From Roseateles agri (lineage in GTDB: Bacteria > Pseudomonadota > Gammaproteobacteria > Burkholderiales > Burkholderiaceae_C): a stretch of DNA of 64,000 nt. The position numbers were made by a program, and so were the translations under genes. The notes beneath the pieces were generated by a model. The model was not told the origin of the DNA and searched no databases. It saw only the letters and a program-made list of their open reading frames with translations. This document shows positions 10,596-64,000 of this stretch, piece after piece. Every line of letters begins with the position of its first letter. The stretch's first letter is position 1. Location: contig NZ_JAXCLA010000007.1 of assembly GCF_034043675.1 (NCBI RefSeq), positions 452,547 through 516,546 of the forward strand. The letters run 5' to 3'.

Positions 10596-10609
10596 CTCCT
10601 GAGGGTTTT

Positions 10610-10646
10610 GCTGGTGGTGGCCGGCGCTGCCACCAGCCTTTTTCTT
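10610..10646 (+). terminator. intra-operon stem-loop with a T-rich tail after the SBP gene
   Basis: GCTGGTGG...CCACCAGC stem followed by CTTTTTCTTCC. Confidence 0.5.
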
Positions 10647-10684
10647 CCCTTTCCTTCTCCTCTTCGGTTTCACTCGGGACGTCC

Positions 10685-49883: not shown

Positions 49884-50014
49884 ACCAAGTCCTCTGGATG
49901 CGGCCCACTCGCTGATGGCCGAAGGATGGTATGCAAGCAGGGTGCTTGCGGATGAGCGGTGCCAATGCTTTCGCGAGACGGGCGCCCGGTGAGCCCGGCG
50001 GCGATTGTATGGGG

Positions 50015-52147
50015 CTAGGCCTCGTCCACCCGGATCACCTCCGCGGCAGCCCGCAGATAGGCCAGCGCTGCCTCGGGGTTGCGCGCGCGCTGGGCGACTT
50101 CCTCCAGCGAGCCGTCGCGGCGCAGTGCCTTGTTGAGTTCGGCCACCTCGTCGTCGCCCAGGGCGCGGGCTGCGTCGAGCGCCTGCATCAGGTCGAGCAG
50201 GCCGCCGCGCTTGGGGCGCGAGACGTCGGGGCACAGCTGGCGCATCAGCGCCGGCTGCGTGCGCAGTGCGTCGGCCAGCGCCAGCGCTTCACGGTCGCGC
50301 AGCGGTGCAAGGCGGCCGGTGCCGTGCAGCAGCATCGGCGCCAGTGCGCGCAGCAGGCGCGAGGGCAGGTTGGCGTACAGATCACGCAGCAGGGTCGCGG
50401 CCGCGTGCAGTTGCAGGCGGATCGCCGCGCGCGCCACCGGCAGCAGGGCGGGCTCCTTGTCGACCTCGTAGCGCCACACGCAGGCGGCGGCGAGGTAGAG
50501 CGCGGCGAGGGCATCACCCAGGCGCGCCGACAGCAATTCCATGCGCTTGAGCTTGCCGCCGAGCAGGCCCATGGCGAGATCGGCGGTGAGCGCGTAGCGG
50601 GCCGACAGCGAGGCGATGAGCCGTGCCTCGGCGCGCAGGTCGGCCGGCGGGTTGCCATGCAAAGGCGCGCCCGCAAGGCTGCGCCAGAGGTTGCGCAAGA
50701 CATGACCCCCGTGGCCCAGCAGGGCGCGGCCCAGGCGCTCGGGGTCCTGGGCCTGCACGGCCTGCATCTCTTCCAGCACGAAGGGGTGGCAGCGGGTCGC
50801 GCCCTGGCCGAAGATGATCAGCGCCCGCGACAGCAGGTTGGCGCCTTCCACGGTGATGGCGATGGGCGCATGGCGGTAGGCCACGCCCAGCAGGTTGCGC
50901 GGGCCGGAGATGATGCCCTTGCCGCCCAGAACGTCCATGCCCTCGTTGACGGCGCTGCGACCTGCCTCGGTGAGCTGCACCTTCAGGATGGCGCTGGCGA
51001 CGCTGGGGCGCTCGCCGGCATCGAGCGCGGCGGCGGTGTAGCGCCGCGCGGCGTCGGTGGCGTAGAGCCGCGCGGCCATCTGCGCGGTGATGCCCGCGAT
51101 GGCGTGAAAGCGCCCGATCGGCAGGCCGAACTGCTGGCGCACCTGCCCATAGCCGTTGACCACGAACAGCGCCGTCTGCTGCATCGCCGCGCCCAGTGCC
51201 GGCAGCGAGATCGCGCGGCCGGCGGCCAAGCATTCCATCAGCATGCGCCAGTCCTGGCCGATGCGCTCCTCGCCGCCGATCACCCAGTCCATCGGCACGA
51301 AGACGTCCTCGCCGCGAATCGGCCCGTTCATGAAGGCCGAGTCCATCGGCCGGTGGCGGTGGCCGATCTCCATGCCCGGCGTGGGCACGGGCAGCAGCGC
51401 GCAGGTGATGCCTAGCTCCTGCTGCCCCTCGGGCCGCGAGGGATCGATCGCCTGGAAGGCCAGGCCCACGACGCTCGCCACCGGCGCAAGCGTGATGTAG
51501 CGCTTGTCGAAACGCACGCTGAAGCCGCGCACCGTGCGGCCGTCAATGGTCCGCTCCGTCAACACGCCGCGGTCCGGAATGGCCGCAGCGTCGAAGCCGG
51601 CGTAGGGCGAGGTCAGGCCGAAACACGGCAGCTCGCGGCCGTCGGCCAGCCGCGGCAGGTAGTGCTGCTGCTGAGCCGGCGTGCCGTAGCGCAGCAGCAG
51701 CTCGGCCGGGCCCAGCGAGTTCGGCACCATCACCGTGACCGCGCAGGCGGTGTTGACGGTGGCGATGCGCGTCACCACCTCGGCGTGCGCGTAGTGGCTG
51801 AAGCCGAGGCCGCCATACTCCTTCGGAATGATCATCCCGAAGAAGCGGCGCTCGCGCAGATAGGTCCACACCTCCGGCGGCAGATCGCCGGCCTCGTCGA
51901 TCGCATGGTCGTCGAGCATGCCGATCAGCGGGGTCACCTCTTGCTCGAGGAAACGGCGCTCGTCGTCCGTGAGCCGGTTGGGCCCGCGCGAGATCAGCGC
52001 ACCGAAGTCCGGCTGGCCGGCGAACAACTGACCCTCGAAGCCGACCGTGCCGGCCTCCAGTGCCGCCCGCTCGGTATCGCCCATAGCGGGCAGAGCCTTC
52101 GAGAACGGCGCCATCGCCAGGCGCCCGAGGAGTCGATGCAGTCCCAT
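50015..52147 (-). CDS. fadE: large acyl-CoA dehydrogenase (FadE type)
   Basis: Acyl-CoA dehydrogenase middle and C-terminal domains plus the FadE-specific C-terminal extension. Confidence 0.85.
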   Translation of the reverse strand: MGLHRLLGRLAMAPFSKALPAMGDTERAALEAGTVGFEGQLFAGQPDFGALISRGPNRLTDDERRFLEQEVTPLIGMLDDHAIDEAGDLPPEVWTYLRERRFFGMIIPKEYGGLGFSHYAHAEVVTRIATVNTACAVTVMVPNSLGPAELLLRYGTPAQQQHYLPRLADGRELPCFGLTSPYAGFDAAAIPDRGVLTERTIDGRTVRGFSVRFDKRYITLAPVASVVGLAFQAIDPSRPEGQQELGITCALLPVPTPGMEIGHRHRPMDSAFMNGPIRGEDVFVPMDWVIGGEERIGQDWRMLMECLAAGRAISLPALGAAMQQTALFVVNGYGQVRQQFGLPIGRFHAIAGITAQMAARLYATDAARRYTAAALDAGERPSVASAILKVQLTEAGRSAVNEGMDVLGGKGIISGPRNLLGVAYRHAPIAITVEGANLLSRALIIFGQGATRCHPFVLEEMQAVQAQDPERLGRALLGHGGHVLRNLWRSLAGAPLHGNPPADLRAEARLIASLSARYALTADLAMGLLGGKLKRMELLSARLGDALAALYLAAACVWRYEVDKEPALLPVARAAIRLQLHAAATLLRDLYANLPSRLLRALAPMLLHGTGRLAPLRDREALALADALRTQPALMRQLCPDVSRPKRGGLLDLMQALDAARALGDDEVAELNKALRRDGSLEEVAQRARNPEAALAYLRAAAEVIRVDEA

Positions 52148-52251
52148 GCGTCGAGGCTAGGCCCTCGTGACTACCGGCAACGCCAGCCTAGGGCGCGCTC
52201 TGACGTAGGACTCAAGGCCGCCGTGGACTGGTCGACGCTTCTGATCTGGAG

Positions 52252-52325
52252 TGGAGCGGGTGATGGGAATCGAACCCACGTAGTCAGCTTGGGAAGCTGA
52301 AGTTCTACCATTGAACTACACCCGC
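52252..52325 (-). tRNA. tRNA-Gly(CCC)
   Basis: Reverse complement GCGGGTGTAGTTCAATGGTAGAAC-TTCAGC-TTCCCAA-GCTGA-...GGGTTCGATTCCC...CACCCGCTCCA. Confidence 0.9.
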
Positions 52326-52540
52326 ACTTGCATTTCCCGTTGCAGATCAACGGGTTAGGCGTCAAGTCCTTGATTCAGCGTAGGTTTTTACACCTGCGGG
52401 CCAAAATCTACTACCTGTCCGGACTTGTCCGTAACAGGGGGCTCTTGTCGCCTTGGCGTAGCATTGGCGTAACTTTTTTGAGGGCCGGCTCCCAGGTCCG
52501 GAAAGTTACGCCGCTGCGGCGCCGGGACGAGTATAGGGCG

Positions 52541-53836
52541 ATGCGTTTTGATCCCAATGCGGCCAAGCTGCTCAAGCCTGGCCAGCACCTGCTGGTGGAA
52601 GGCTGTGACGGTCTGAGGCTGGAGGCAAGCGCCTCGCGCAAGAGCTGGATCTACCGGTACAAGAGCGTTGCGGGCACCATGCGGCAGACCAAGCTCGGGC
52701 AGTGGCCAGCGATGCCGATGGCGGCCGCGGTGTCGGCATGGCAGGCGCTTGTCGACGTGCGCGCCGCTGGACAGGACCCCAAGGCCGTCAACCGCCGGAA
52801 GCCGACCACCGAGCTGGCCGGCTACGCGGTGCGCCGGCTCGTCGACGACTACCTCGATGGCCACATCGAGCACAACCGCAAGCCCGCCGGCGTCACGGCC
52901 GCCAGGCGAGCGCTGACGACGCTGCTGGACGAGGAACGCGTCTTCGCGAGCATGCAGGCGGCCGAGGTCACCCGATCGCTGGCGTTCGATCTGCTGGAGG
53001 CGCGCAAGAGCACGCCGACGGCCGCCACCAAGCTGCGTTCGATGCTGGCCAGCGCGTGGGACTACGCGCTCGATGCCGGCCGCCTCGGCGAGGACTCGCC
53101 AAACTGGTGGCGCCAGGTCCAGCGCGGCCGGCTCAAGAGCAAGGGCAAGATCGTCGGCGGTGAGCACCAGGGGCGCGCGCGGCGCGTGCTGTCGCCGGCG
53201 GAGATCTCGCAGCTGCTGGCCTGGCTGCCGGCGATGCATGAGGTCGGGCGCGACGCGACGGTGCTCTACCTGTGGACCGGCGTGCGCGGCTCGGAGATCT
53301 TCTCCCTGCGGCCAGAGCACCTGCAGGAGGAGCGTGGCGTGTTGTGGTGGGTGATCCCGAAGGCGCTGACGAAGAACGCGCACCACGAGTTCGCCGTCGA
53401 CCTGCGCGTGCCGCTGTTCGGTCGGGCGCTGGACGTGGTCAAGCGGCGAGCGGCCGCGGTGGGGAAGTCAGGGGCGCTCTTCGAGGACGAGAAGGGCGAG
53501 CAGTACACGCAGAAGGCGTTCTCGACCTACGTCTATGACCTGCAACCGTACAGCGCCAAGGCCCGGCGCATGGAAGGCCGGCGCCTCACCGTGCCGGTGA
53601 CGGGCTGGACGCCCCACAACCTGCGTCGCACGGCCCGCACGCTGCTGGCCAGCCTGAAGTGCCCCAAGGAAGTGGCCGAGGCGATGATCGGCCACTTGCC
53701 CGAGGTGATGGACGCGACGTACAACTCGCACAGCTACGATGCCGAGCGGCTGCTGTGGCTGAAGCGCCTGGCTGCGCATCTGGAGAAGCTGGCCAAGCAT
53801 CAGCCACCGGTCGACGGCTTGCCGGCGCGGCCGTAG
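52541..53836 (+). CDS. tyrosine-type site-specific integrase (phage P4-like)
   Basis: C-terminal catalytic residues (R...HxxR...Y) around HNLRRTARTLL. Confidence 0.85.
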   Translation: MRFDPNAAKLLKPGQHLLVEGCDGLRLEASASRKSWIYRYKSVAGTMRQTKLGQWPAMPMAAAVSAWQALVDVRAAGQDPKAVNRRKPTTELAGYAVRRLVDDYLDGHIEHNRKPAGVTAARRALTTLLDEERVFASMQAAEVTRSLAFDLLEARKSTPTAATKLRSMLASAWDYALDAGRLGEDSPNWWRQVQRGRLKSKGKIVGGEHQGRARRVLSPAEISQLLAWLPAMHEVGRDATVLYLWTGVRGSEIFSLRPEHLQEERGVLWWVIPKALTKNAHHEFAVDLRVPLFGRALDVVKRRAAAVGKSGALFEDEKGEQYTQKAFSTYVYDLQPYSAKARRMEGRRLTVPVTGWTPHNLRRTARTLLASLKCPKEVAEAMIGHLPEVMDATYNSHSYDAERLLWLKRLAAHLEKLAKHQPPVDGLPARP

Positions 53837-54063
53837 CCTGCGCCCTTGGGTGGCGCCAGGTCGGACACCGGGCGCGTCAGCGCGAACTCCCGCAGATCCT
53901 GCACCAGCCAGCCGGTGCGGTTCGCGCTGATCTTGCGGGGCTTGGGCAGCGCGCCGGAGTTCACGAGCACGTCGATCGTCGACAGGGACACCGACAGGAA
54001 CGCCGCGGCTTGCGGCTTGGCCAGGAACATGGGTTCCAGGGCGATGATGGTTTCAGCAGCCAT
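53800..54063 (-). CDS. AlpA-family phage transcriptional regulator / excisionase
   Basis: HTH LSVSLSTIDVLVNSGALPKPRKI. Confidence 0.6.
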   Translation of the reverse strand: MAAETIIALEPMFLAKPQAAAFLSVSLSTIDVLVNSGALPKPRKISANRTGWLVQDLREFALTRPVSDLAPPKGAGYGRAGKPSTGG

Positions 54064-54952
54064 TGACGGCCTCCTGCGCGCCGGCGTCGATCGCCGGCGA
54101 CGTTGAAAACAGCCCGCCACGGCTGGCATCGAGCGCAGCGCTGCAGGCGGGGTTGAGCCAGACCACTTCGGTCCGGTGACTCGTGCCGCGGCCGCCGCTG
54201 ATGCGAGCGGTCGTTTCGTGGCGATTCCAGGCCTGCAGCGCGCCGTCGTACAGGCTTGACGCATAGCCGCAGAGGATCACCATGCCGTCGACGGCGAGCA
54301 GCGCGTCGATCAGGCGGCGGTGGCCAGCGTCGTCGAGCTCGTGACGGTAGCCGCCCTTGTTCCGCATGTGCCGCGTGGCGTGCACGTACGGCGGATCGAC
54401 GAAGTGCAGCGTGTCGGGCCCGTCGTGGGCCTGGATGACGGCGATCGCCTCGCGGTTCTCGATCAGGACGCCGGCGAAGCGCTCGCCGATCGCCGCGATC
54501 GAGTCGGGGTAGGCCGCCCAGTTGTGCTGGGCGGTGCCGTACTTGCGGCGAGTGTCCGTGCGGAAGCCCGTCGTGGCCTTGGTGGCGCCGGCGCTGCCGA
54601 ATCCCATCGCCGCGCGCACGCAGGTGCGCCGGGCGCGTTCTAACGCGTCGTCGGTGGGCTGATAGCTGCCGTCGAACTCCTCGCGGGCGTAGGGCGTGAG
54701 CCGGCAGGCTTCGACCAGGTCAGCGCGCATGGCTGGATCCCGCACCACGCGAAAGAAGTTGACGATGTCCCCGTCGAGGTCGTTGTACACCTCGGCATAG
54801 ACGCGCGGCTTGCGCAGCAAAACTCCGGCCGCACCGCCGAAGGGCTCGACGTAGCAGCCATGGGGGGGCATGAACTGCAGGATCCAGGGCGCCAGGCGGA
54901 ACTTTCCGCCGTGGTAGCGCAGGGCTGGACGGGTGACGGTTTCAGCGGCCAC
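54053..54952 (-). CDS. Dam-family N6-adenine DNA methyltransferase (D12 class)
   Basis: Motifs YHGGK, EPFGGAAGV and DPPY. GTG start. Confidence 0.8.
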   Translation of the reverse strand: MAAETVTRPALRYHGGKFRLAPWILQFMPPHGCYVEPFGGAAGVLLRKPRVYAEVYNDLDGDIVNFFRVVRDPAMRADLVEACRLTPYAREEFDGSYQPTDDALERARRTCVRAAMGFGSAGATKATTGFRTDTRRKYGTAQHNWAAYPDSIAAIGERFAGVLIENREAIAVIQAHDGPDTLHFVDPPYVHATRHMRNKGGYRHELDDAGHRRLIDALLAVDGMVILCGYASSLYDGALQAWNRHETTARISGGRGTSHRTEVVWLNPACSAALDASRGGLFSTSPAIDAGAQEAVNGC

Positions 54953-55349
54953 CGGGTGTCTCCTCTTGCAGATCCGCTTTGGCTGCGCGCAGTTGATTGC
55001 GCCATCCTGGACCGCGCAGGCTTACCTCGTGAGTGCGCGGTCCTCGCAACCAGAGTGAGTAAGACACGCGGCCATTGGCCAGCATGTCGATGCGATGCGA
55101 CAGTTCGGGCCGAACGAGCCCGAACTGCGGCGGGAACCACCAGTGGAAGCGCGATGCCTCGACCTCCTCGAGGTAGCCGCCCCACAAGATCAGCCGCACA
55201 GCGATCGCCGGGTGGGTGTGATAGCAGCGGGGCACATCGGCGCGCACGAACTTGTGCAGCTCAAGCCGCCAGCCGCGGAAGCTGGCCAGGTGCTTGATCC
55301 ACATGATGGGCTCGCCGGCGACCGTACCGATCCACTGGTCCCAGTTCAT
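54942..55349 (-). CDS. hypothetical phage protein (135 aa)
   Basis: ORF in the prophage operon with an 11-nt overlap. Confidence 0.45.
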   Translation of the reverse strand: MNWDQWIGTVAGEPIMWIKHLASFRGWRLELHKFVRADVPRCYHTHPAIAVRLILWGGYLEEVEASRFHWWFPPQFGLVRPELSHRIDMLANGRVSYSLWLRGPRTHEVSLRGPGWRNQLRAAKADLQEETPGGR

Positions 55350-56077
55350 GAGGCATCTCCCACTGGCGTACGCACAGCTCGTCGGTCGAATGCCCGCAGC
55401 GCCGGCGCGAGTGTGTCGGGCAGCACGGCCCAAGCGACGTAGAACTCGGCGCCATGGAGCCGCGTGCCGGCGAAAGAACGAAAACCCAGGAACTCGCCGT
55501 CCTCGCTGCACCAGCACGGCGCCATGATGTGGAAGCCATCGCAGGGGTTCAGCAGCAGGCAGTCTCGCGTGTCGCGTGGCGGGATCTCTGACGCTGGGCG
55601 GAAGTCAAGCACGAAGTGCGGCGCCAGGCTGACGAAGCGCTCGCCGTACTGCTCGACGGCGGCAAGCAAGTCGCCGATGCCATGCCCGGGGGAGAGTTTC
55701 CGTGCCTCGGCGCGCACGGTGTTCCACGCCATTGCGATGGAGTTCTCATCCCAGATCCGCGGCTGTTCGGCGACTCGCGCCGGCAGTCCGCGCTCTCTGA
55801 CCGGTGCTGCGCTCGGAGTCACTGAGATCCCGCGATAGATGCCCATCAGCGTCTTGTCCGAGATGGTGCTGATGGCACCGAACTGCTCGGCGAGCGGATG
55901 CTTTGCCGCGACCATCAGAGCGCCGATGTGGTCGGGCGGGTACAGGTCGCCGTTGACGACGGTGTAGCCGAGCTGCATGAGCTCTTCCAGAGCATGCGTC
56001 TTCAGGAAGTCGTCGTGCGTCGACACGTCGCCGGACTGGGCGTAGCTCGGGTCTTGTCGCTTTGGTGAGTGCAGCAT
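55346..56077 (-). CDS. hypothetical phage protein (243 aa)
   Basis: ORF; ATGA coupling. Confidence 0.5.
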   Translation of the reverse strand: MLHSPKRQDPSYAQSGDVSTHDDFLKTHALEELMQLGYTVVNGDLYPPDHIGALMVAAKHPLAEQFGAISTISDKTLMGIYRGISVTPSAAPVRERGLPARVAEQPRIWDENSIAMAWNTVRAEARKLSPGHGIGDLLAAVEQYGERFVSLAPHFVLDFRPASEIPPRDTRDCLLLNPCDGFHIMAPCWCSEDGEFLGFRSFAGTRLHGAEFYVAWAVLPDTLAPALRAFDRRAVRTPVGDAS

Positions 56078-56799
56078 CAGAAAAGTCCTTCCTGCTGAGG
56101 CGTCGTTGCCGGCGCCGGTGTGTTTGCGAGGTGATGGAGGATCCAGGCCTGCACGGCCTGGGCGGCTTCGAGGTAGGCGGCGCTGGGCGTGCCCTTGACT
56201 TCCTGGCCAGGCACGTAGGTGCGCCAGATCCGGTCGCGCAGGTCTTTGGGCAGGGCGTACCAGTGGCGCGTGCAGCCCCACATCGCCGGCGGGCACTGAG
56301 CGGTGCAGCCGGGCCAGTGGCAGTGATGCTTGCGCGTCTGGCCCTGGCTCTTGACGTAGGCGACCTTGTGGCTGACGCCGGCGAGCACGCTGGATGGGAC
56401 ACCGAAGAAGCCGAGGCGGCCGCCGTACGGGATGAGCCGCTCGAAGGCCTTCGCCTGGTCGAGCACGAAGCCGTAGGGCCCGAAGAAGTACTCGCTCGGG
56501 TGTTGCTTCACGCAATCGGTGATGACGGCCTCGCCGACGATGCCGCCGACCATCGACTCGCGGTCTTCGGGGTAGCCGAGGTGCCGCCAGGATTCGAGAT
56601 CGTCAAGGTGATCGCGCTTGCTGTACGTCACGCCGGCGTGGATCAGCACGCGGCCGCGGAACTTGGTCGACCAGGTGCGGTTCTCCACCGGCTTGATGCA
56701 GTGGCTGATGAGCCACGCGTAGGGCTGGCGGACCGACAGGCAGGGGATCATCTCCTCGGCCAGGTCGGCCCCATCGCGATCGAACTCGGGCGGCCTCAT
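56077..56799 (-). CDS. ASCH-domain protein with a C-terminal Cys/His-rich region
   Basis: ASCH signature LSVRQPYAWLI. Confidence 0.6.
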   Translation of the reverse strand: MRPPEFDRDGADLAEEMIPCLSVRQPYAWLISHCIKPVENRTWSTKFRGRVLIHAGVTYSKRDHLDDLESWRHLGYPEDRESMVGGIVGEAVITDCVKQHPSEYFFGPYGFVLDQAKAFERLIPYGGRLGFFGVPSSVLAGVSHKVAYVKSQGQTRKHHCHWPGCTAQCPPAMWGCTRHWYALPKDLRDRIWRTYVPGQEVKGTPSAAYLEAAQAVQAWILHHLANTPAPATTPQQEGLF

Positions 56800-57851
56800 G
56801 GCGTGGGCCCGATCGGAAAGCCGTTGTGCTCGATGCCGTCGAGCAGGCGGCCGGCGGTCTTCTTGCCTGGTCGGATCAGGCCGCGATAGGCCACGCCGTC
56901 CACCATGTCGTCAGGGTCGGTGACGAAGTGGCCGGCCAGGCTGATGAAGCCGTCGTGCTTCGCCAGTTCGGCATTGAACTCAGGGTCGCCCTCGCGTGCG
57001 ACGAGCGGCTCGGCCATGCCGCTGTCGACCTCGATCCACTCGCCCCACTGCTTGAACAGGAAGGGCACGTCAGGGCGCGTGCACTGATCGCGCAGGCTGC
57101 GTGCCCAGTCCGGATGCATCGGCCGGGCCTTGGGGCCGCTCTCGCCGCCGGCGATGATCCAATTCACTGCTGGCACGTCGTCTGCCGGCACGCCCTCGTC
57201 GTTCACGCATTCCGTCGTGCCGATGAGTGGATAGATCTCGGCGTCCCCGCCGCAGACCTGGATGCGGGTCAGATCGATGGGCCCGAGCATGGGTTCAATC
57301 GACAAGAACCTCATGTGCGCCGGCGTGGCCAGCAGCTTGGGGATGTCGCGGTCGGCCTCGGCCTGGTTGACGGCGGTCGCGCCGAGCCAGACATTCGGCC
57401 ATGGCCAGGCCGCGAAGGGCACTGAGTAGCCGATGTCGAGGTCTGCGATCGCGGCCTTGATCATGGCCTCGGCGTTGCCGATACGCTTGGTGAGCAGCAG
57501 CCAGTCGAGCCGCGGTGTCTTGCGGATCAGCTCGAACAGGTCGGCACGCCAGGCTGGATCGACCTGGTTGTCGAACACGTCGGCCAGCGATGCGCAGAAG
57601 ACGCGCCGCCGGCGGCCGTGCTCGCGTTCGAAGGCGTCAGCGCCGAGGTTCCAGGCGACGGGCTTGCGCCAGTTCGCGACGCTCGTCCGCCGGCGTGGAG
57701 CGCCCGGGCCCCAGTTCACGGCTTGGCCGCCGGCGTACCGTGCGTTGCGGTTCTCGGCGTAGCAGTTGTCGCAGCCGGGGCCAGCGTGCTGGCAGCCTTC
57801 CCATGGGTTGAAGGTGCTGTCGCACCATTCGATGTTGCTGCGGTCAGCCAT
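56796..57851 (-). CDS. phage Gp37/Gp68 family protein (DUF5131)
   Basis: N terminus SNIEWCDSTFNPWEGCQHAGPGCDNCYA. Confidence 0.75.
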   Translation of the reverse strand: MADRSNIEWCDSTFNPWEGCQHAGPGCDNCYAENRNARYAGGQAVNWGPGAPRRRTSVANWRKPVAWNLGADAFEREHGRRRRVFCASLADVFDNQVDPAWRADLFELIRKTPRLDWLLLTKRIGNAEAMIKAAIADLDIGYSVPFAAWPWPNVWLGATAVNQAEADRDIPKLLATPAHMRFLSIEPMLGPIDLTRIQVCGGDAEIYPLIGTTECVNDEGVPADDVPAVNWIIAGGESGPKARPMHPDWARSLRDQCTRPDVPFLFKQWGEWIEVDSGMAEPLVAREGDPEFNAELAKHDGFISLAGHFVTDPDDMVDGVAYRGLIRPGKKTAGRLLDGIEHNGFPIGPTP

Positions 57852-59805
57852 GGCACACCTCCTCTCCTTGGGCCAGCATCAGCGCCGCGGCGACGGGCCG
57901 CACCCAGACCGGCGCAGCGCTGAGCTGGAAGGTCTCGCCGGCGTCGGCCAGCATCAGCGTGCGCAGCATCTCGTCGGCGATCGCGCGAGCCGATGCGCGT
58001 GGCACCGCGTTTCCGATGCGCTCGCGCCAGGCCTGGTCGCTGGTACCGTCGAGCTGGAATGCGGCCGCCTCGATCGGGTCTTCGGGGTCGAACAGGCTTT
58101 GCAGTGCGGCCAGCTCCAGCGTGGTGAAGGGCCGGTGCCACGTGTTGTCCTCAGCGAGGATGTGGGCGACGAGGCGATCGTTTGCAGCCGGCATGGCCGC
58201 GACTTGCACCAGATCGCAAACTCGCGGATCCGCTACCGACCAGCGGCCGTTGTCGTGGCACGCTGCCGCGCTGACTGCGCCGCAACTGCTGGACCAGGGC
58301 ACGACGCCGAGGTGGCCACCCGTCAGGTAGGCGGCGCGATCCGGCGACATACTGGTGCGCGGGTCGGCGACCGCGTAGGCGCCGCAGTCGTCCCCTGCGA
58401 TCACCGTTCCAGAGCTGCCACCCCATCCCGCCACTGGGTACTTCGTGAACAGGCGACCCTGAGCTGTCGGCCGCGGGTCTGCGACGGACAGATGGCCGCC
58501 TTGGACGCCCTTGCCGCCGGCGGTGACCGTTCGGCTCGTGTCCTCGAAGCCGGCCACGTGCAGGTGGCCGTGGCGGCCGTCCCAGGCCGGTCGCGGATCG
58601 GCAAGCGCCTGGCCAGTCCCGTGCGCGCTGGTGACCGCCATGGCCGAACCCGACCATCGGACGATGCGGAACTCGTTCGAGTGCTTCGCCGGCCCGGTGT
58701 GCCGCGGATCGGCGACGCTGTAGGAACCCTGACCAGGCCCTTGCTGACCAGCGATCGCGCCCGTCGAGTCTTCCCAGCGGCGCACGCCGTAGGCCTGCCC
58801 ATCACGCCAGAGTGCGCGCTGCTGGAATCGGACGTCGGCCACCGAGAAGGTGCCGTTCATCGGCAACGACTGTCCGGCCACGACGCCGGTGGAATCCTCC
58901 CAGCGGCGCACGCCGAGTCCGCCGTTGTGCATCGCCGGCACGATCAGGTAGTCGCGCAGCACGCCGTCTTCCACAGCCAGCCGGTTCAGGCTGCGCCAGT
59001 CCTTGCCGGCCTCGACGAAGGCCAGGCGCACCCAGGTCTTCCAACTGAGCTGCGGCACGCGGTGCATCGGCCCGGCCGTCAGATCGCCGGGTAGCGGCAT
59101 CTTGCTGAGTACGTCGCCCACGGCACGCAGCGGCCGGCGCGGCGGCTCGTACAGCAGGTTCGGCACCTTGGCGATGTGTCGGGCCACCAGCAGGAAGCGC
59201 TTGCGGCTCTGCGCCAGGCCGCCCAGCTCGCCGCAGTCGTGCGTGGTCTCGGCCACGGCGTAGCCGTAGGCGCGGAGCATGGCCGAGATCTGATCGAGCA
59301 GCGCGCGGCCGCGCGTGGCCAGGCGCGGCACGTTCTCGAACAGGATCAGTTCGGGCGGGTCGTCGGCCCAGGCCTCCAGGGTGAGCCAGACGCCGCGCAG
59401 CGTGAGCCGATTCAGCGCCTGGTACTTGGCCGTCAGGCTCTTCGCCTGCGACAGCAGGCCGCTGAAGCCCTTGCACGGCGCGGACAGGAAGACCGCGTTC
59501 GGACGGCGGAAGCCCGCGGCTCGACGGATGTCGTCGGGCGTGGCCTCGCGCCATCCGGGTGGCGGCTCATGGCCGTGATAGGCCACGTACTGCTCGCGGT
59601 CCATCAGGTCCATGTCCGTGGCACGCGTGCCGACCAGGCGCGCGAAGTCGCGGTTCGCGGCCGGGTCGACGTCGACGCTGCCCAGGCATTCCCAGTGGCC
59701 ATCCAGGCCGCCGACGTTGACGTGCGAGTCCTTGAAGCCCAGTGCGCCGCCGCCAATGGCACCGAACAGGCAGAAGAAGGTCTTGACGATCGGGGCGAGT
59801 TTCAT
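57844..59805 (-). CDS. DNA (cytosine-5) methyltransferase with six tandem ~40-aa repeats in the target-recognition region
   Basis: Motifs I (LFGAIGGGALGF), IV (PCKGFS), VI (ENV), VIII (QSRKRF), IX and X (GNAVP). The repeat is W-DS-G--AGQ...SVADPR. Confidence 0.85.
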   Translation of the reverse strand: MKLAPIVKTFFCLFGAIGGGALGFKDSHVNVGGLDGHWECLGSVDVDPAANRDFARLVGTRATDMDLMDREQYVAYHGHEPPPGWREATPDDIRRAAGFRRPNAVFLSAPCKGFSGLLSQAKSLTAKYQALNRLTLRGVWLTLEAWADDPPELILFENVPRLATRGRALLDQISAMLRAYGYAVAETTHDCGELGGLAQSRKRFLLVARHIAKVPNLLYEPPRRPLRAVGDVLSKMPLPGDLTAGPMHRVPQLSWKTWVRLAFVEAGKDWRSLNRLAVEDGVLRDYLIVPAMHNGGLGVRRWEDSTGVVAGQSLPMNGTFSVADVRFQQRALWRDGQAYGVRRWEDSTGAIAGQQGPGQGSYSVADPRHTGPAKHSNEFRIVRWSGSAMAVTSAHGTGQALADPRPAWDGRHGHLHVAGFEDTSRTVTAGGKGVQGGHLSVADPRPTAQGRLFTKYPVAGWGGSSGTVIAGDDCGAYAVADPRTSMSPDRAAYLTGGHLGVVPWSSSCGAVSAAACHDNGRWSVADPRVCDLVQVAAMPAANDRLVAHILAEDNTWHRPFTTLELAALQSLFDPEDPIEAAAFQLDGTSDQAWRERIGNAVPRASARAIADEMLRTLMLADAGETFQLSAAPVWVRPVAAALMLAQGEEVCHG

Positions 59806-60434
59806 GCGCGGCTCTCCCGGCTGGACAGGGCCGTGGTGGTGGGCGCCCAGGCCGCGACCTTCAGGTCGCTATCGATTCCTTCGGCCGCCAGGCCGCTGGC
59901 TCCTGATTCCTTTCTCATGGCCGCAAGGCCACTAGACAAGACTTCCGTCGCGGACGCGGTTCGGTCGAGCCATTCCTCATCGGTGGCGCGGTCGGCCTCG
60001 GGCACGTCGGATTCCATACGGGCCATCAGGTCGAGTAGGGCCCGCAGCTCCGTGGCAAACATCAGGGCGATCGCGGCCAATCGCTTGCTCTCTTCGCTCG
60101 TCGCCTCGACCTTCCCCCCGCCCCCCTTCCCGTGTGGGTCCCGTCCAGCGGCTGGCGAGGCGGGAGTGACGGCCAAAACTTCGCCCGCGAACGTGAAGCG
60201 ATCGTGGTGCGCGAGCACTGCGGCGAGCGTCTTCTTGTCGGCGATCTGCACGTCCAGGCGCATGCCGTTCTCGCCGATCAGGAACAGGCGTCCCTCATGC
60301 GCGCCGGGGAAGGGCAGGAAGTGCCCCTGATCCGTGCCTTGAGCGGTGACGCGGAAGGCGACAACGGCGGTGAGCGCAGCCGCCACAGGCGTGAGCGCGC
60401 GCATCCAGTCGATGGCAGCTTCGGGCGCGCTCAT
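59802..60434 (-). CDS. hypothetical phage protein (210 aa)
   Basis: ORF. The upstream in-frame extension was rejected. Confidence 0.45.
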   Translation of the reverse strand: MSAPEAAIDWMRALTPVAAALTAVVAFRVTAQGTDQGHFLPFPGAHEGRLFLIGENGMRLDVQIADKKTLAAVLAHHDRFTFAGEVLAVTPASPAAGRDPHGKGGGGKVEATSEESKRLAAIALMFATELRALLDLMARMESDVPEADRATDEEWLDRTASATEVLSSGLAAMRKESGASGLAAEGIDSDLKVAAWAPTTTALSSRESRA

Positions 60435-60751
60435 TGCTGCGGCTCCTTGGCTCGCTCTGCTGCCCCGTCGGCCGAGATGGCGAAGTTGATCGCCTTGATC
60501 GTTGCACCCAACGACGGCGACGCCGCGACGATGTCGTTCTCCACGATCTGCCCGAAGATGGTGTGGAAGACCCGTGTGAGGCCCGGCGTTTGATCCGGCA
60601 TGGCAATCAGCAACTGATCCTTGAATGCGCCGGGAGCGATGCAGCGGTAGGCGACCAGGCCATGCCATGGCGCGCCTTCTTGGACCAGAACCGCCTGCAC
60701 GCCATCGGTGAGTTCGAGAGTGATCGCCTCGATCTTCTTGGCTTTCAGCAT
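60431..60751 (-). CDS. hypothetical phage protein (106 aa)
   Basis: ORF; start MLKAKKIEAITLEL. Confidence 0.4.
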   Translation of the reverse strand: MLKAKKIEAITLELTDGVQAVLVQEGAPWHGLVAYRCIAPGAFKDQLLIAMPDQTPGLTRVFHTIFGQIVENDIVAASPSLGATIKAINFAISADGAAERAKEPQQ

Positions 60752-60938
60752 CACTGGCCTCCCGTCTTGGCGTTGGGATTGGCCGGCCAGACCCTGATGA
60801 CCGGTTCGTAGTGGCCCATGCGCAGCGGCTGGAGCGACTGCAGGTCGATGGTGACGACGGCGCCGACCTTGTTTGCCTGGTCGACGAGCTGCTCGGCCAT
60901 GGCCTGGATGAGCGCGAGATCTGCAAGAGTGGCGGGCA

Positions 60939-62852
60939 TTACGCGGCCTCCTTGGTGAAGTCTTCAAGGCGCGCGCCGGCGGCGATCGCGGCCTTGAGCC
61001 ACGCGGGCTGAAGGCCGCGGCCGCTCCACGTTTCTCCGGTGGCGGCGTTGCGATACTTGACCTGGCCGGGCTTGGCCGGCGCATGAGCGGCGGCGAAGGC
61101 GTCGCCGGCGGCGTTCTTGCCCAGGCGTTCGTCTTCCTCGGCCTGGATCTGGCTGCTGGCCTCCTTCTCGGCCTCAGCAGCGAGTGCCGCGACCTGGTCG
61201 GCCACGCCCAGCTCGGTGGCGATGGTCCACGTGGGCTCGCCGTCGTAGTTGCTGGCCTCGATGTCCTCCAACGTGTAGGGATCGGTCAGTTCCTCGGCCA
61301 TCAGCACCTGGGCCAGCAGCGTGCCGAGGAGCCTGCCGTCTTCCATGTTCACGATGCGATGGAGGAAATCCCGCTCGGCCTTGGCCCGCTCGGCCGAAGA
61401 CATGAACGTATTCGCCGGAGGGATGTCCCATCCGTGGGCGCGATAGATCAGCGCGGTCGCCTCATAGGTGAGATCGCCCGCGAGCTGGGCGACGGCGAGC
61501 CGCAGAGCCGCCAGCGGCAGGCCCTGGGTGTTCATGCGCTCCAGCAGCAGCGTCTGCGCGCGGACACCGAAGAGCTTGCAGGCCCGTTCGCCACGCATGG
61601 CCGCGAGGGTCTGCTCGCTGCGCGGCTGCGGCGCTGCCGGCGACGCGCTGCTGGACGGGGCCTGTACGGCCGTCGCCGCATCGCTCAGCGTCGGCTTCGG
61701 CGGCGGTGCAGGTGTCGGCGCCGCCGGCGGACGCAGCAGGTTCTTGCTCTTGAGCAGCTTGCGCGCGTCCGTCTCGGGCACGATGCGCAGGATCTGGCCG
61801 CTGGGGCCGTGCTCCAGCGTGATGACGCCGCGCTGCTTGGCGCCGAAGATCTCCGACAGGATGCGCTTGTCCGCCGTCAGGGTGGGCGCCGGCTGGTCGA
61901 ACCACAGGTGCCCGTTCGGCAGGGCCGTCGGCTTGGGCATCAGGGTGATGGCGGCAACGCCGCGCAGCACCGTGTGGCCTGCCGCTTCGGCCTCGGCGAA
62001 CTTCAGCTCCCACGTCTCATGCTGCTTGGCGCGGAAGCAGGCGCTGTCCTGGCACATGTCGCCTTGCTTGACGTCGTCGAACAGATCCGGGCTCGCGCCG
62101 CTGCGCTTCTTGCAGTCGCTGCAGGGGCCGGCGATCTGGAACACCGCGCGGATATCGAACGGCGCGAGCGACAGGTCCAGCATGAACTCCTTGCGCAGGA
62201 ACTCGGCCGAGGCACGGAAGCTCAGCGGCTCACCGCCGAAGCCTTCCAGGATGCGCTTGAGCGCGCTGCGCTGCTGGTCCTCGTTCGGCATGCGGGCGAT
62301 CAGGCCGGCGACGCTGGCGTTCAGCTTGTCGTCGAGGAAGGCCTCGCGGGCCGGCTCGCACAGATTCAGCAGCGACAGGCGCAGGTAGATCCAGCGCTTG
62401 CTCTTGCCGATCTTGGCCGCCAGCTCCTCGACGCTGGCATAGCCCTGCATGCCTTCGCCCGGGTGCAGCAGCTTCTGCAGGCCCTCGGCCTCTTCGAGCG
62501 GATGCAGGTCATCGCGGTCGATGTTCTCCAGCAGCTGGATCTCCAGCGCCTCGAAGTCGGTCAGGTCGCGGATCAGCGCGAGGATCGTGGGCTTCTCCGC
62601 TTGCTTGCTGGCCCGCCACCGGCGCTCGCCGCAGACCAGTTCATGCGGCGGCTGGCCGTTGCCGTCGTGCCAGGCCGGATTGCGGCGAAGCAGCACGGGC
62701 TGGATCACGCCGTGCTTCTTGATGCTCTCGGCCAGTTCGTCGATCTTGGCCTGCTTGAAGCGCTTGCGCGGGTTGGTCGGGCTCGGCGCGATCAGGCCGA
62801 GCGGTACGTAGACCGCGGGTTCGGTCTTGTGCTCGATGGTGCTCATGCGCAC
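60939..62852 (-). CDS. ParB-like nuclease domain protein fused to a C-terminal H-NS-like DNA-binding domain
   Basis: ParB N-terminal motifs (VQPVLLR, GERRWRA). C-terminal H-NS motif TGETWSGRGLQPAWL. Confidence 0.75.
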   Translation of the reverse strand: MRMSTIEHKTEPAVYVPLGLIAPSPTNPRKRFKQAKIDELAESIKKHGVIQPVLLRRNPAWHDGNGQPPHELVCGERRWRASKQAEKPTILALIRDLTDFEALEIQLLENIDRDDLHPLEEAEGLQKLLHPGEGMQGYASVEELAAKIGKSKRWIYLRLSLLNLCEPAREAFLDDKLNASVAGLIARMPNEDQQRSALKRILEGFGGEPLSFRASAEFLRKEFMLDLSLAPFDIRAVFQIAGPCSDCKKRSGASPDLFDDVKQGDMCQDSACFRAKQHETWELKFAEAEAAGHTVLRGVAAITLMPKPTALPNGHLWFDQPAPTLTADKRILSEIFGAKQRGVITLEHGPSGQILRIVPETDARKLLKSKNLLRPPAAPTPAPPPKPTLSDAATAVQAPSSSASPAAPQPRSEQTLAAMRGERACKLFGVRAQTLLLERMNTQGLPLAALRLAVAQLAGDLTYEATALIYRAHGWDIPPANTFMSSAERAKAERDFLHRIVNMEDGRLLGTLLAQVLMAEELTDPYTLEDIEASNYDGEPTWTIATELGVADQVAALAAEAEKEASSQIQAEEDERLGKNAAGDAFAAAHAPAKPGQVKYRNAATGETWSGRGLQPAWLKAAIAAGARLEDFTKEAA

Positions 62853-63391
62853 TGGCCCTCCGTGGCCTTGGCGCCCAGCGCGCCGGGTGTGAAAACGTGT
62901 GCACCGCTCGGCACCTGGCCGGCGAGCACATTGCGGATGCGGGCGATCGTGCGGCTCACCGCCTGGGCCAGTTCGCCGCGGCTGCAGTGCGTGAGCTGGA
63001 CCTGGTGCACAAACACGGCCAGGTCGATGGCGGCCAGCTCTGCGCCGCGCAGCGTCCAGTTGCCGCCGGCCTGCTGGCGGGTCATCACGGCGGCGAGCGC
63101 GGTCTTGGCGGTGTCGAACGTGACGGCGTGGTCGCTCGCGATCTGGTGCTCGACCAGGTCGGCGCCAACGTTGAACGCATCGGCCAGCTCGCGCCAGTGG
63201 TCCTCGCTGCCGCGGCCGGCGCGGAACTCGGCCAGGGCCAACTGACGCGGGCCCATGATGTGCTCGCGCTCGGTGCGCGTGAGCAGCGCGATGCGGTTGA
63301 GGGCGATCTCGATCGGCGAGGCGTCGGGCGCTTCGCCGGCCATGCGTTCGACGAAGTGGCGCTTGTGCGGCCGCCGGGTGCGGTGTGCCAT
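62843..63391 (-). CDS. hypothetical phage protein (182 aa)
   Basis: ORF from MAHRTRRP. Confidence 0.45.
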   Translation of the reverse strand: MAHRTRRPHKRHFVERMAGEAPDASPIEIALNRIALLTRTEREHIMGPRQLALAEFRAGRGSEDHWRELADAFNVGADLVEHQIASDHAVTFDTAKTALAAVMTRQQAGGNWTLRGAELAAIDLAVFVHQVQLTHCSRGELAQAVSRTIARIRNVLAGQVPSGAHVFTPGALGAKATEGQCA

Positions 63392-63405
63392 GTGGGCTCC
63401 TGTGG

Positions 63406-63651
63406 TCAGAAGGGAAGTGACGCGTCGCCTTGCAGGCGATCGCGGAAGCGCCAGAGCTTTCTCTGGCGAAGGTCGCGGCTCAGGGGCCGTTCCTTGCGGG
63501 AAACGTAGAGGCGTCGGCTGGCCAGCAACGGCGAAAGCCAGCGGCCCTTGATGCACACGCGCGGACCGTTGTCGCAGCAACATTTCAAGCGCGCCGTGAC
63601 GCGCAGCCTCGGGCCATAGATGACGTGAGGTTCGAAGCTGCTGGTGGACAT
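63406..63651 (-). CDS. small Cys-rich hypothetical protein (81 aa)
   Basis: ORF from MSTSSFEP. Contains a CCCD...C cluster. Confidence 0.3.
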   Translation of the reverse strand: MSTSSFEPHVIYGPRLRVTARLKCCCDNGPRVCIKGRWLSPLLASRRLYVSRKERPLSRDLRQRKLWRFRDRLQGDASLPF

Positions 63652-63688
63652 GCGTCGTTCGCGCAGAGGGCTGTAGGGGTGATGCACT

Positions 63689-64000
63689 TCAGTCGTCCTC
63701 GCGCTCGCCGGCAGCGAGGCCCTTGTGAACGATGAAGTCGACGTCGCGGTCGGCGTCGCGCTGGGCCTCCCGGTCCGCGCTGTCTTCGCGCAACTCGGCA
63801 TTGATCATCGAGATCAGCAGCTCGTGTGCGCTCGATTGCAAACGGAGCACGGTCGGCTCCAACGCCCTTTGGGCGGCGGCCCTGGCGGCGTCCCAGGCGG
63901 CGGCCCTGGCGGCGTCCCAGGCGGCGGCCCAGGCGGCGGCCCAGGCGGCGGCCCTGGCGGCGTCCCAGGCGGCGGCCCAGGCGGCGGCCCAGGCGGCGGC
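63689..64000 (-). CDS. 3' end of a gene running off the window, encoding AAAW/AAAWDAAR peptide repeats (partial)
   Basis: The reverse strand translates cleanly to ...VLRLQSSAHELLISMINAELREDSADREAQRDADRDVDFIVHKGLAAGEREDD*. This ORF is not in the supplied track. Confidence 0.5.
   Translation of the reverse strand, partial: AAAWAAAWAAAWDAARAAAWAAAWAAAWDAARAAAWDAARAAAQRALEPTVLRLQSSAHELLISMINAELREDSADREAQRDADRDVDFIVHKGLAAGEREDD
63880..64000. repeat. tandem repeat of 12-nt (GCGGCGGCCCAG) and 24-nt (GCGGCGGCCCTGGCGGCGTCCCAG) units
   Basis: Read directly at the window end. Confidence 0.8.

Follow-up and report, generated by a model that had tools for sequence, protein, structure and literature searches.

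A prophage-like island on the 5′ side of a tRNA-Gly(CCC) gene in Roseateles agri

In the window (the whole stretch of 64,000 nucleotides that was analysed), an integrase-led, prophage-like island lies on the 5′ side of a tRNA-Gly(CCC) gene; it is not found downstream of the gene with a duplicated 3′ segment, as canonical 3′-side tRNA integration would place it. An earlier note had placed the tRNA on the minus strand with 215 bp between its 5′ end and the integrase start; the tRNA call was reproduced with ARAGORN, and the distance to the integrase ATG at 52541 agreed. The features at this end of the island are as follows.

52252-52325, minus strand: tRNA-Gly(CCC), intact (ARAGORN)
52302-52325, no strand assigned: core identity block GTTCTACCATTGAACTACACCCGC, reverse complement of tRNA nt 1-24; occurs once in the window and, among relatives, at attL, attP and attR
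52336-52354, plus strand: hairpin CCCGTTG-cagat-CAACGGG in putatively phage-derived DNA, 10 nt from the tRNA 5′ end; folds at the same place in relatives
52363-52375, minus strand: IHF-consensus site AATCAAGGACTTG (WATCAANNNNTTR) on the P′ arm, lying between core and arm-type sites; exact consensus match
52377-52387, plus strand: predicted arm-type integrase site 1 (AGCGTAGGTTT); motif match, with the same motif at the same place in Variovorax sp. PBS-H4 (L404)
52455-52476, plus strand: predicted arm-type sites 2 and 3, head to tail (GGCGTAGCATT GGCGTAACTTT); motif match
52502-52512, minus strand: predicted arm-type site 4, inverted (GGCGTAACTTT on the minus strand); motif match, pairs with site 3
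52541-53836, plus strand: tyrosine integrase of 431 aa with an N-terminal arm-binding domain (Pfam PF13356 and PF00589; phrog_1)

The integrase and the attachment core

The integrase contains both domains of a heterobivalent tyrosine integrase, namely the arm-binding domain (PF13356 Arm-DNA-bind_3, residues 20-86, scoring 37.6 bits where the cut-off is 27) and the catalytic domain (PF00589 Phage_integrase, residues 216-398). Residues R249, K278, H359, R362, H385 and Y394 were invariant across 41 integrase homologues and are assigned by pattern as the putative catalytic R-K-H-R-H-Y set. The protein has 722 homologues at E <= 1e-20, and one annotated from Paucibacter sp. R3-3 matches it with 100% identity across 431 aa. 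Its earlier label, ‘P4-type’, would describe Pfam domain content only, and the NCBIfam search with the integrase matched no model.

Twelve relatives with readable upstream DNA, whose integrases are 53-62% identical to that of the window, were compared: L082, L404, the IMG/VR loci L086, L087, L088, L098, L107, L206 and L190, and the attP forms L091, L099 and L100. All 12 have the tRNA 5′ segment in the same orientation at a distance of ~170-230 bp upstream of int, which shows that the 5′-side placement, rightly called unusual in the earlier note, is systematic. In the Variovorax pair L081/L082, for instance, int is 60% identical and the tRNA-Gly(CCC) on the minus strand has its 5′ end 224 bp before int. 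The 3′ two-thirds of the tRNA vary among the loci and the 5′ 24 nt are constant.

The free forms carry a tRNA fragment beside int, and this fragment comprises nt 1-24 only in L099 and L091 and nt 1-21 only in L100. Tail-fibre and endolysin genes are located directly upstream of attP-int in L099, as expected of the gene order of an unintegrated phage genome. The far end of an integrated relative could be read on contig IMGVR_UViG_3300028590_000320 (53,141 bp), where arm repeats are followed by the 24-mer and then by host DNA with an alpha/beta-hydrolase gene; its P-arm junction is visible at the int end. In relatives, one end has the tRNA intact and the opposite end a displaced 24-nt piece of its 5′ part in direct orientation. 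An independent lineage of 53-55 kb prophages, with a second integrase of 337 aa and different arm repeats, is arranged alike: the full tRNA marks one end, and this same 24-nt fragment marks the opposite one.

When the attP and attR of relatives were compared with the window, the block shared at the tRNA was nt 1-24, which takes in the acceptor 5′ strand, nt 8-9 and the entire D-arm (GTTC-AATGGTA-GAAC). The window tRNA is accordingly read as a putative chimera at attL, in which nt 25-74 (52252-52301) would be host DNA and nt 1-24 (52302-52325) are common with the phage attP. Because the attP of L100 matches tRNA nt 1-21 only, the crossover is inferred to occur no further 3′ than nt 21; the 7-nt D-loop is its probable place. 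A second copy of the tRNA 5′ 24-mer was not detected in the 64-kb window at <=3 mismatches; the single copy is consistent with a second att site (attR) beyond the right edge, where the earlier note had put it.

Arm-type sites, the IHF site and the hairpin

The earlier note had also described an 11-bp inverted repeat upstream of int as a possible arm or operator site. The pair is perfect, GGCGTAACTTT and AAAGTTACGCC, and occupies 52466-52476 and 52502-52512, so that the span of 52467-52510 given for it was off by 1-2 nt. An arm site is the better reading, because the same repeat is present on both attP arms of relatives: GGCGTAGGTTT arm repeats flank the tRNA 5′ segment on both sides in L099, L100 and L091. 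The inverted repeat is a member of a predicted four-site arm-type cluster beside the window's only IHF-consensus match. With <=1 mismatch, GGCGTAGSTTT has six matches in the whole 64 kb, and since four of them fall within a span of 136 bp here, the cluster is beyond chance. At the position of sites 2 and 3, all relatives have a tandem pair, which is likewise seen on the P arm of attP and attR, and the pattern of two direct sites and one inverted site is repeated in L082, L091, L099, L100 and L404. Repeats are thus seen on both arms, with the four P′ sites taken from the window and the P arm from relatives; L099, L100 and L270 have GGCGTAGGTTT in tandem pairs to the left of the core, and the P arm of the island itself is beyond the window.

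The IHF-consensus site is the sole exact match in 64 kb, where 0.09 would be expected, and its AAGTnnnTGA block is conserved in the 12-locus alignment (A63, A64, G65, T70 and G71 invariant); we infer that IHF acts at 52363-52375. The hairpin is present at the matching place in 10 of the 12 loci, and its stems vary yet stay paired (CTCGTTG/CAACGAG, CTACTG/CAGTAG, CCCATT/AATGGG). As a T-run comes next in most relatives, the hairpin upstream of int may be a rightward terminator or insulator; the window copy has no T-run, and terminator prediction made no call in the window.

Integration in the tRNA 5′ part and comparable systems

With high confidence, the visible end of the island is taken to be attL, the end next to int, of a temperate phage that is lambda-like or closely derived from such a phage, and whose heterobivalent integrase recombines in the 5′ part of tRNA-Gly(CCC). 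The phage attP would carry tRNA nt 1-24, that is, the acceptor 5′ strand and the complete D-arm with its GTTC/GAAC stem around a 7-nt loop, between GGCGTAGSTTT arm-type repeats on either side of the core. After a crossover that we place inside the D-loop, the host would retain nt about 21/25 to 74, and nt 1 to about 20/24 together with all upstream DNA would be phage-derived, in the order hairpin, IHF-type site, four arm sites and int. Recombination by the integrase within nt 1-24 of the tRNA would explain why the prophage lies on the 5′ side. As the phage brings the acceptor 5′ strand, the D-arm and new upstream DNA, the tRNA of the lysogen would be a chimera; the host upstream region and the displaced 24-nt 5′ fragment would be expected at the prophage far end (attR), beyond the window. 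It is further proposed that the phage DNA supplies a promoter, so that the chimeric tRNA may remain expressed.

This last step is where the main alternative differs. It accepts the same attachment mechanism and departs from it in the consequence alone: integration would sever the tRNA from its promoter, leaving it silent or much reduced in lysogens until excision restores it, so that gene integrity would be regulated. On metagenome contigs, a clear box resembling TAGAAT begins ~16-25 nt ahead of the mature 5′ end in many native tRNA-Gly(CCC) genes, and by the identical test the phage-derived upstream DNA of the window has none. No convincing sigma-70 promoter for the tRNA was observed in this DNA, where the promoter scan returned a single site, 200 bp from the tRNA at the int start. 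The CCC-anticodon glycine tRNA is, moreover, often dispensable given tRNA-Gly(UCC). Against these points, the phage copy of the second lineage retains the host TATATT box at its spacing from the tRNA, the hairpin loop of several relatives contains a -10-like hexamer near the native position (TGAAAT, TATAAA, TAGAAA), and elements that target conserved genes mostly preserve them (PMC7192596). We therefore consider a silenced tRNA unlikely, though it is the strongest of the alternatives.

The preferred reading, integration in the tRNA 5′ part, makes this prophage a clear new example of a rare, previously reported arrangement and not a new kind of system. The closest counterpart is PBS-H4_pp_2 of Variovorax sp. 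PBS-H4 (L404), with an integrase 60% identical to that of the window (P0048), in which 212 bp separate int from the 5′ end of a tRNA-Gly(CCC) on the opposite strand, and the hairpin, the AAGT..TTGA block and the arm repeats are ordered as in the window. Its att repeat is given as GTTCTACCATTGAACTACACCCGCA in Table 2 of the VarioGold paper (PMC9658991), which is the window 24-mer plus one base; the passages of that paper on this att site do not remark that the repeat is the tRNA 5′ end. The host genus and the cargo are different, and the same table's listed size of 88 kb may span more than one element (PMC9658991).

Klebsiella pneumoniae arg2A-VII islands (integrase clade I.d) similarly lie upstream of the arg2 tRNA gene, at a sublocation termed the novel ‘D-loop’ (bioRxiv 10.1101/2020.11.02.365908). 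By that definition the window element belongs with them, since its identity block is the acceptor 5′ strand plus D-arm and the island is upstream; the likeness is one of integration site, and the Klebsiella islands use a tRNA-Arg gene in another host class. Canonical tRNA integrases (P4 and others) are likewise tyrosine integrases with an attP tRNA fragment that rebuilds the gene, and their sublocations are described as the anticodon loop, the T-loop and the 3′ end (Williams 2002, in the summaries given in passages of bioRxiv 10.1101/2020.11.02.365908 and PMC7192596). The likely crossover in a 7-nt loop with an inverted-repeat stem resembles the two symmetric canonical sublocations. However, canonical elements carry a 3′ fragment, whereas the window-type phage carries a 5′ fragment, lies upstream of the tRNA and must replace its upstream and promoter region.

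Targeting of the 5′ end of a conserved gene, with int adjoining that end, is also seen in integrases specific for dusA (PMC4482086) and in prophages specific for mutS, for example GI8c of B. pseudomallei (PMC2612704), although these targets are protein-coding and not tRNA genes. The integrases of the mutS-targeting Ralstonia YO122_3 and RS-AB1 and Acidovorax Aval are 48-51% identical to that of the window, and these phages share the arm-repeat layout. Since a sister integrase clade (45-50% identical) adjoins the mutS 5′ end at ~240 bp, 5′-end targeting looks like a trait of a wider integrase group that includes the mutS clade. As in the lambda attP, the core would be flanked by arms that carry several predicted arm-type sites, and an IHF-consensus site would separate the core from the arm sites; in contrast to lambda, int is transcribed away from att and the arm-binding domain is of the PF13356 type.

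Gene content and host flank

Rightward of int, the following features were annotated up to the window edge.

53800-54264, minus strand: HTH DNA-binding / excisionase-like ORF (PHROG 33884, 597 and 66, residues 58-141 only)
54053-54952, minus strand: Dam-type N6-adenine DNA methyltransferase (PF02086; phrog_56 at 1.7e-64)
54942-56515, minus strand: poorly resolved stretch with overlapping ORFs 54942-55517 and 55346-56515 (weak phrog_4786 and phrog_17248 matches only)
56077-56799, minus strand: phage protein of unknown function with weak ASCH similarity (phrog_3193 2.9e-39; phrog_18063 8e-29)
56796-57851, minus strand: DUF5131 protein (PF07505 3.3e-87; phrog_2045 7.6e-101)
57844-59805, minus strand: C5-cytosine DNA methyltransferase, 653 aa (PF00145; phrog_32684, phrog_116)
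59802-60926, minus strand: ORF of 374 aa, no family match
60939-62852, minus strand: ParB-like protein with a C-terminal H-NS domain (PF02195, PF17762, PF00816; ParB-like PHROGs; TIGR00180)
62843-64000, minus strand: two ORFs, 62843-63583 and 63689-64000 (window end), from GC3 analysis

The gene content is phage-like and the relatives include full phages, which bears out the earlier description of the island as prophage-like; ERF, YqaJ and an S24 repressor are present in L081/L082. Every rightward ORF with coding-like GC3 is on the minus strand, as had been claimed, but to call every one of them phage-like was a slight overstatement. Most of these ORFs match phage families (HTH/excisionase-like, Dam methylase, DUF5131/phrog_2045, C5 methylase, ParB-like), and three have no match: the ORF at 59802-60926, for which nothing was found in Pfam, PHROGs or NCBIfam, and those at 62843-63583 and 63689-64000, which matched no family in the searches. 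The ASCH match of the 56077-56799 protein is under the Pfam cut-off, and the C5 methyltransferase gene has 75-76% DNA identity to Achromobacter and Pseudomonas phage methylase genes. Since it runs into the 3′ end of the Dam gene, the 53800-54264 ORF probably has an internal true start. In phage Aval, the equivalent place is occupied by a gene of the AlpA family.

The visible part of the element, 11.5 kb, covers the early-left region only, and the prophage runs on past the right edge at 64000. A decayed remnant, in which the integrase and some early genes were left after deletion and excision was lost, would also present early-region genes alone, without structural genes, in the window, and would agree with the poorly supported, overlapping ORFs at 54942-56515, none of which passed the GC3 filter. 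Yet the full-length integrase retains every candidate catalytic residue, the core, the IHF-type site and the four arm sites are intact, the large genes are unbroken up to the window edge, and related elements measure 38-66 kb. Decay thus appears a rather poor account of the locus.

The 3′ side of the tRNA is a host acyl-CoA dehydrogenase gene common to 20 Roseateles genomes. The comparison with related genomes proposed in the earlier note to define attB yielded no empty site for this host: none of the 20 has a tRNA beside the dehydrogenase gene, and homology to them stops ~24 bp before the tRNA 3′ end. A metagenome scan with the host-type tRNA segment likewise recovered no locus with the dehydrogenase gene or the window integrase. 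These observations would suit a whole tRNA carried as phage cargo beside int, with the real att at a non-tRNA site between the tRNA and the dehydrogenase gene. However, the flanks of this gene are non-syntenic in all 20 genomes and, because its upstream DNA differs in every one, the missing tRNA says little. The unintegrated relatives, furthermore, have nt 1-24 or 1-21 and not the whole tRNA, and the contrast between its variable 3′ two-thirds and constant 5′ end also argues against cargo, which we regard as highly improbable. A fortuitous position of the integrase beside the tRNA, with the element attaching at an unrelated site, has nothing in its favour but the absence of attR from the window, and it can practically be dismissed given the same tRNA segment, distance and orientation in 12 of 12 relatives.

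Position of the island at tRNA-Gly(CCC)

The prophage-like island (52252-64000) lies on the 5' side of a tRNA-Gly(CCC) gene identified with ARAGORN, whose 3' end points leftward and 5' end rightward. An acyl-CoA dehydrogenase gene is located to the left and the tyrosine integrase gene, int, to the right.

Features around tRNA-Gly(CCC)
50015-52147, minus strand: acyl-CoA dehydrogenase gene, 710 aa
52252-52325, minus strand: tRNA-Gly(CCC)
52541 (ATG), plus strand: int, an ORF of 431 aa, 215 bp from the tRNA 5' end
Right of int, minus strand: HTH/excisionase-like ORF
Right of int, minus strand: Dam methylase
Right of int, minus strand: DUF5131 protein
Right of int, minus strand: C5 methylase, 653 aa
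60939-62852, minus strand: ParB-like protein with an H-NS tail

Elements targeting tRNA genes normally sit downstream of the tRNA, with its 3' segment duplicated. The window element fails this usual 3'-side test, being upstream of the tRNA and carrying the 5' segment. The integrase contains the Arm-DNA-bind_3 and Phage_integrase domains, and a protein annotated as coming from Paucibacter sp. R3-3 matches it at 100% identity. All ORFs with coding-type GC3 to its right are on the minus strand, and this gene set is typical of the early-left region of a lambda-like temperate phage. When near-identical phage DNA was sought, the C5-methylase gene alone matched known phages (75-76%). The G+C content of the window is 68%, and composition does not change markedly across the junction.

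Within these genes, the ParB-like early protein combines ParB_N and HTH_ParB with an H-NS C-terminal DNA-binding domain at residues 598-632, a fusion uncommon for a phage ParB-like protein. The last minus-strand ORF contains a 12-nt tandem repeat of the GGCGGCGGCCCWGGCGGCGTCCCA type, in at least nine copies at 63848-64000 and reaching the window edge, which probably encodes an Ala/Gly/Pro-rich repeat.

A homology search returned 722 homologues of the integrase at E <= 1e-20. Besides the identical protein, the nearest were ~60% identical, with Variovorax, Polaromonas and Acidovorax as their main sources. Searching IMG/VR with a single integrase sequence gave no match; an alignment query succeeded.

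Relatives with the tRNA-Gly(CCC) 5' end facing int
L081 and L082 (Variovorax paradoxus): tRNA-Gly(CCC) on the opposite strand to int, 5' end 224 bp before it
L404 (Variovorax sp. PBS-H4): same layout, 212 bp
L086, L087, L088, L098, L107, L206 and L190 (IMG/VR): same orientation

The V. paradoxus loci further carry ERF, YqaJ and S24-repressor genes. The tRNA 5' end preceded int in every relative with readable DNA upstream of int, which therefore excludes a chance adjacency of the two genes. The earlier note had placed the island on the 5' side of the tRNA; the window layout and its recurrence in relatives confirm this, and the observation and its interpretation were correct overall.

An empty site was sought through the left neighbour, using 80 loci with an acyl-CoA dehydrogenase gene, 20 of them from Roseateles/Mitsuaria genomes whose genes are 89-92% identical to the window's at the protein level. 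Comparison of 50011-52228 with L001-L018, L066 and L069 showed that the dehydrogenase gene and ~75 bp upstream of it are shared at 82-87% DNA identity. Neither flank is syntenic in the 20 genomes, and the DNA differs in nearly every one. No tRNA-Gly was observed beside the gene in these genomes, a result that is uninformative rather than contradictory given the non-syntenic flanks, and no empty site for the window host was found among the related genomes carrying the gene. Likewise, a 30-mer scan of metagenomes gave 120 loci, the sequence being widespread, none with the dehydrogenase gene or int. In L012, from an uncultured Burkholderiales, a tRNA-Arg(CCG) gene (9068-9142) is located ~860 bp upstream of the dehydrogenase gene.

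The attachment site in free and integrated phages

Three IMG/VR loci (L099, L100 and L091) encode the integrase and no tRNA detectable by ARAGORN. Upstream of int, the only tRNA sequence they hold is GTTCTACCATTGAACTACACCCGC, which reads as nt 1-24 of the tRNA in reverse complement and spans the acceptor 5' strand, nt 8-9 and the whole D-arm (GTTC-AATGGTA-GAAC); L100 matches over nt 1-21 only. The far side of this block is a tandem GGCGTAGGTTT-type repeat pair and not tRNA. In L099, tail-fibre and endolysin genes run directly into the site, which is followed by int, a gene order expected for an unintegrated phage genome. As these loci are attP forms, the phage carries the 5' part of the tRNA and not the 3' part.

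IMG/VR was then scanned for the 24-mer to find the far ends. Most matches fell in unrelated tRNA-Gly(UCC) genes belonging to tRNA arrays of phages, and others formed informative pairs on the same contig. The 53,141-bp contig IMGVR_UViG_3300028590_000320 (loci L091/L182 and L270) encodes an integrase 59% identical to int. At one of its ends, arm repeats lead into the 24-mer and then into unrelated DNA that carries a gene for an alpha/beta-hydrolase. This end is an attR holding the 5' fragment only. At its int end, the 24-mer is preceded by the same 9 nt as in the P arm, which makes it an attP-type junction. Identity between the phage and host copies stops exactly at tRNA base 1 on one side and at nt 24 on the other. 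The presence of attR and attP-type junctions suggests a sample with integrated and excised, or tandem, phage copies.

The arrays in L191, L170 and L213 (IMG/VR) are repeated Lys-(Gln)-His-Arg-Gly(UCC)-Pro-Leu tRNA genes, 18 of them within ~2.2 kb (9361-11547) in L191. They contain the 24-mer because its sequence also forms the 5' part of tRNA-Gly(UCC).

In the window, the int-proximal end (attL) displays the following elements between the tRNA and int.

Elements of attL in the window
52302-52325: core block (tRNA nt 1-24, read as reverse complement), present once in the window
52336-52354: hairpin with a 7-bp stem, -13 kcal/mol, z -2.65
52363-52375, minus strand: IHF-consensus match, the sole one in 64 kb (0.09 expected), in a block conserved in the alignment
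52377, 52455 and 52466, plus strand, and 52502, minus strand: four arm-type sites, 4 of the 6 near-perfect matches in the window

The inverted repeat just upstream of int, which had been noticed earlier as a possible arm or operator site, proved to be arm-type sites 3 and 4, and the arrangement of two direct sites and one inverted site is also seen in relatives. The hairpin occurs at the equivalent place in 10 of 12 loci, with stem changes that keep the pairing when each sequence is folded separately; a covariation count on the alignment was abandoned, the stem register being shifted by one column in L086. A T-run follows the hairpin in most relatives. In the window, both a T-run and a terminator call are absent, and the hairpin was rejected as a terminator there.

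Known systems and other integrases at 5' ends

The VarioGold paper (PMC9658991) places prophage PBS-H4_pp_2 at tRNA-Gly(CCC), with the att sequence GTTCTACCATTGAACTACACCCGCA; its integrase (P0048) is 60% identical to that of the window. In Klebsiella, the arg2 islands use a site made of the acceptor 5' half, D-stem and D-loop, described as a novel 'D-loop' sublocation (bioRxiv 10.1101/2020.11.02.365908). The Islander pipeline discards only 5' fragments downstream of a tRNA gene or 3' fragments upstream, and by implication it therefore accepts upstream 5' fragments. Integration at the 5' end or D-loop and this exact att repeat are both already published, and current understanding is unchanged. 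The island exemplifies, clearly and with good support, a mode of tRNA-site integration that is rare but has been described before.

A sister clade of integrases, 45-51% identical to int, is located ~240 bp from the mutS 5' end (HTPMMQQYL..., MutS_I domain). It comprises L083 (2402-2767), L084 and L085 (1-60), L111, L112, L127, L130-L132, L137, L144, L145, L154 and L159, and its arm-repeat layout is the same as that of the window. The sequence entries for Acidovorax phage Aval and Ralstonia phage RS-AB1 begin with the mutS 5' segment. Integration specific to mutS has been known since 2008 from B. pseudomallei GI8c (PMC2612704), and integration at the dusA 5' end is a similar case (PMC4482086).

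Two further contigs of 53.5 and 55 kb have the complete tRNA-Gly(CCC) at one end and, in direct orientation, the 24-nt fragment at the opposite end (L180/L186, IMGVR_UViG_3300005812_000001; L249/L257, IMGVR_UViG_3300017702_000602). Their integrase, located at the fragment end, has 337 aa with Phage_integrase and Phage_int_M domains, and their arm repeats are TTGTGAGATG, unlike the window-type repeats. The nt 1-24 site thus serves a second integrase lineage as well. In this lineage, the phage copy of the tRNA upstream region retains the host TATATT box and spacing.

The window and its relatives define a 5'-side attachment site with tRNA-Gly(CCC) nt 1-24, readable arm sites and an IHF-type site. 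Two or more integrase lineages of Burkholderiales phages use this site, and it aids the calling of prophage boundaries. Island finders expecting a 3'-end duplication could misplace the boundary of the window element or miss the element. The integrase and its attB are also a possible pair for engineering.

Proposed recombination and transcription of the tRNA

Among the relatives, two arms bearing arm-type repeats flank tRNA nt 1-24 in attP, and integrated forms have the full tRNA beside int and the 5' fragment at the far end. Because the L100 attP diverges after nt 21, strand exchange would take place at or 5' of that position. The likeliest crossover would be the 7-nt D-loop between the GTTC and GAAC stem halves, which would parallel the symmetric anticodon-loop and T-loop sites of other integrases, and IHF may bend the P' arm.

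The tRNA-Gly(CCC) of the lysogen would accordingly be a chimera with phage DNA as its upstream region, which raises a testable question about the source of its transcription. The 120 metagenome loci matched by the 30-mer, which was taken from the part of the tRNA that derives from the host, served as a sample of native upstream regions; many of these native tRNA-Gly(CCC) genes show a TAGAAT-like box that begins 16-25 nt upstream. No convincing sigma-70 promoter candidate for the tRNA was found in 52326-52540, and several relatives display a weaker -10-like hexamer inside the hairpin loop. We regard it as an improbable, speculative reading that the phage swaps the tRNA promoter and leader for the hairpin, IHF-type site and arm sites, so that expression of the GGG-decoding tRNA would be rewired or silenced by intasome proteins in the lysogen and restored on excision, and that 5'-end capture of host gene control might be a selected strategy in this phage group, given the 24 bp common to two unrelated integrase lineages and the use of the mutS 5' end by the sister clade. 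If true, such rewiring or silencing would represent a lysogeny-dependent control of a decoding tRNA.

Elsewhere in the window, a host tRNA cluster of Glu(UUC), Asp(GUC) and Leu(CAG) on the plus strand (39041-40164) has no integrase nearby. To its right, where no gene is clearly supported by GC3, a 126-nt unit is present in three tandem copies, 72-75% identical, at 42090-42475.
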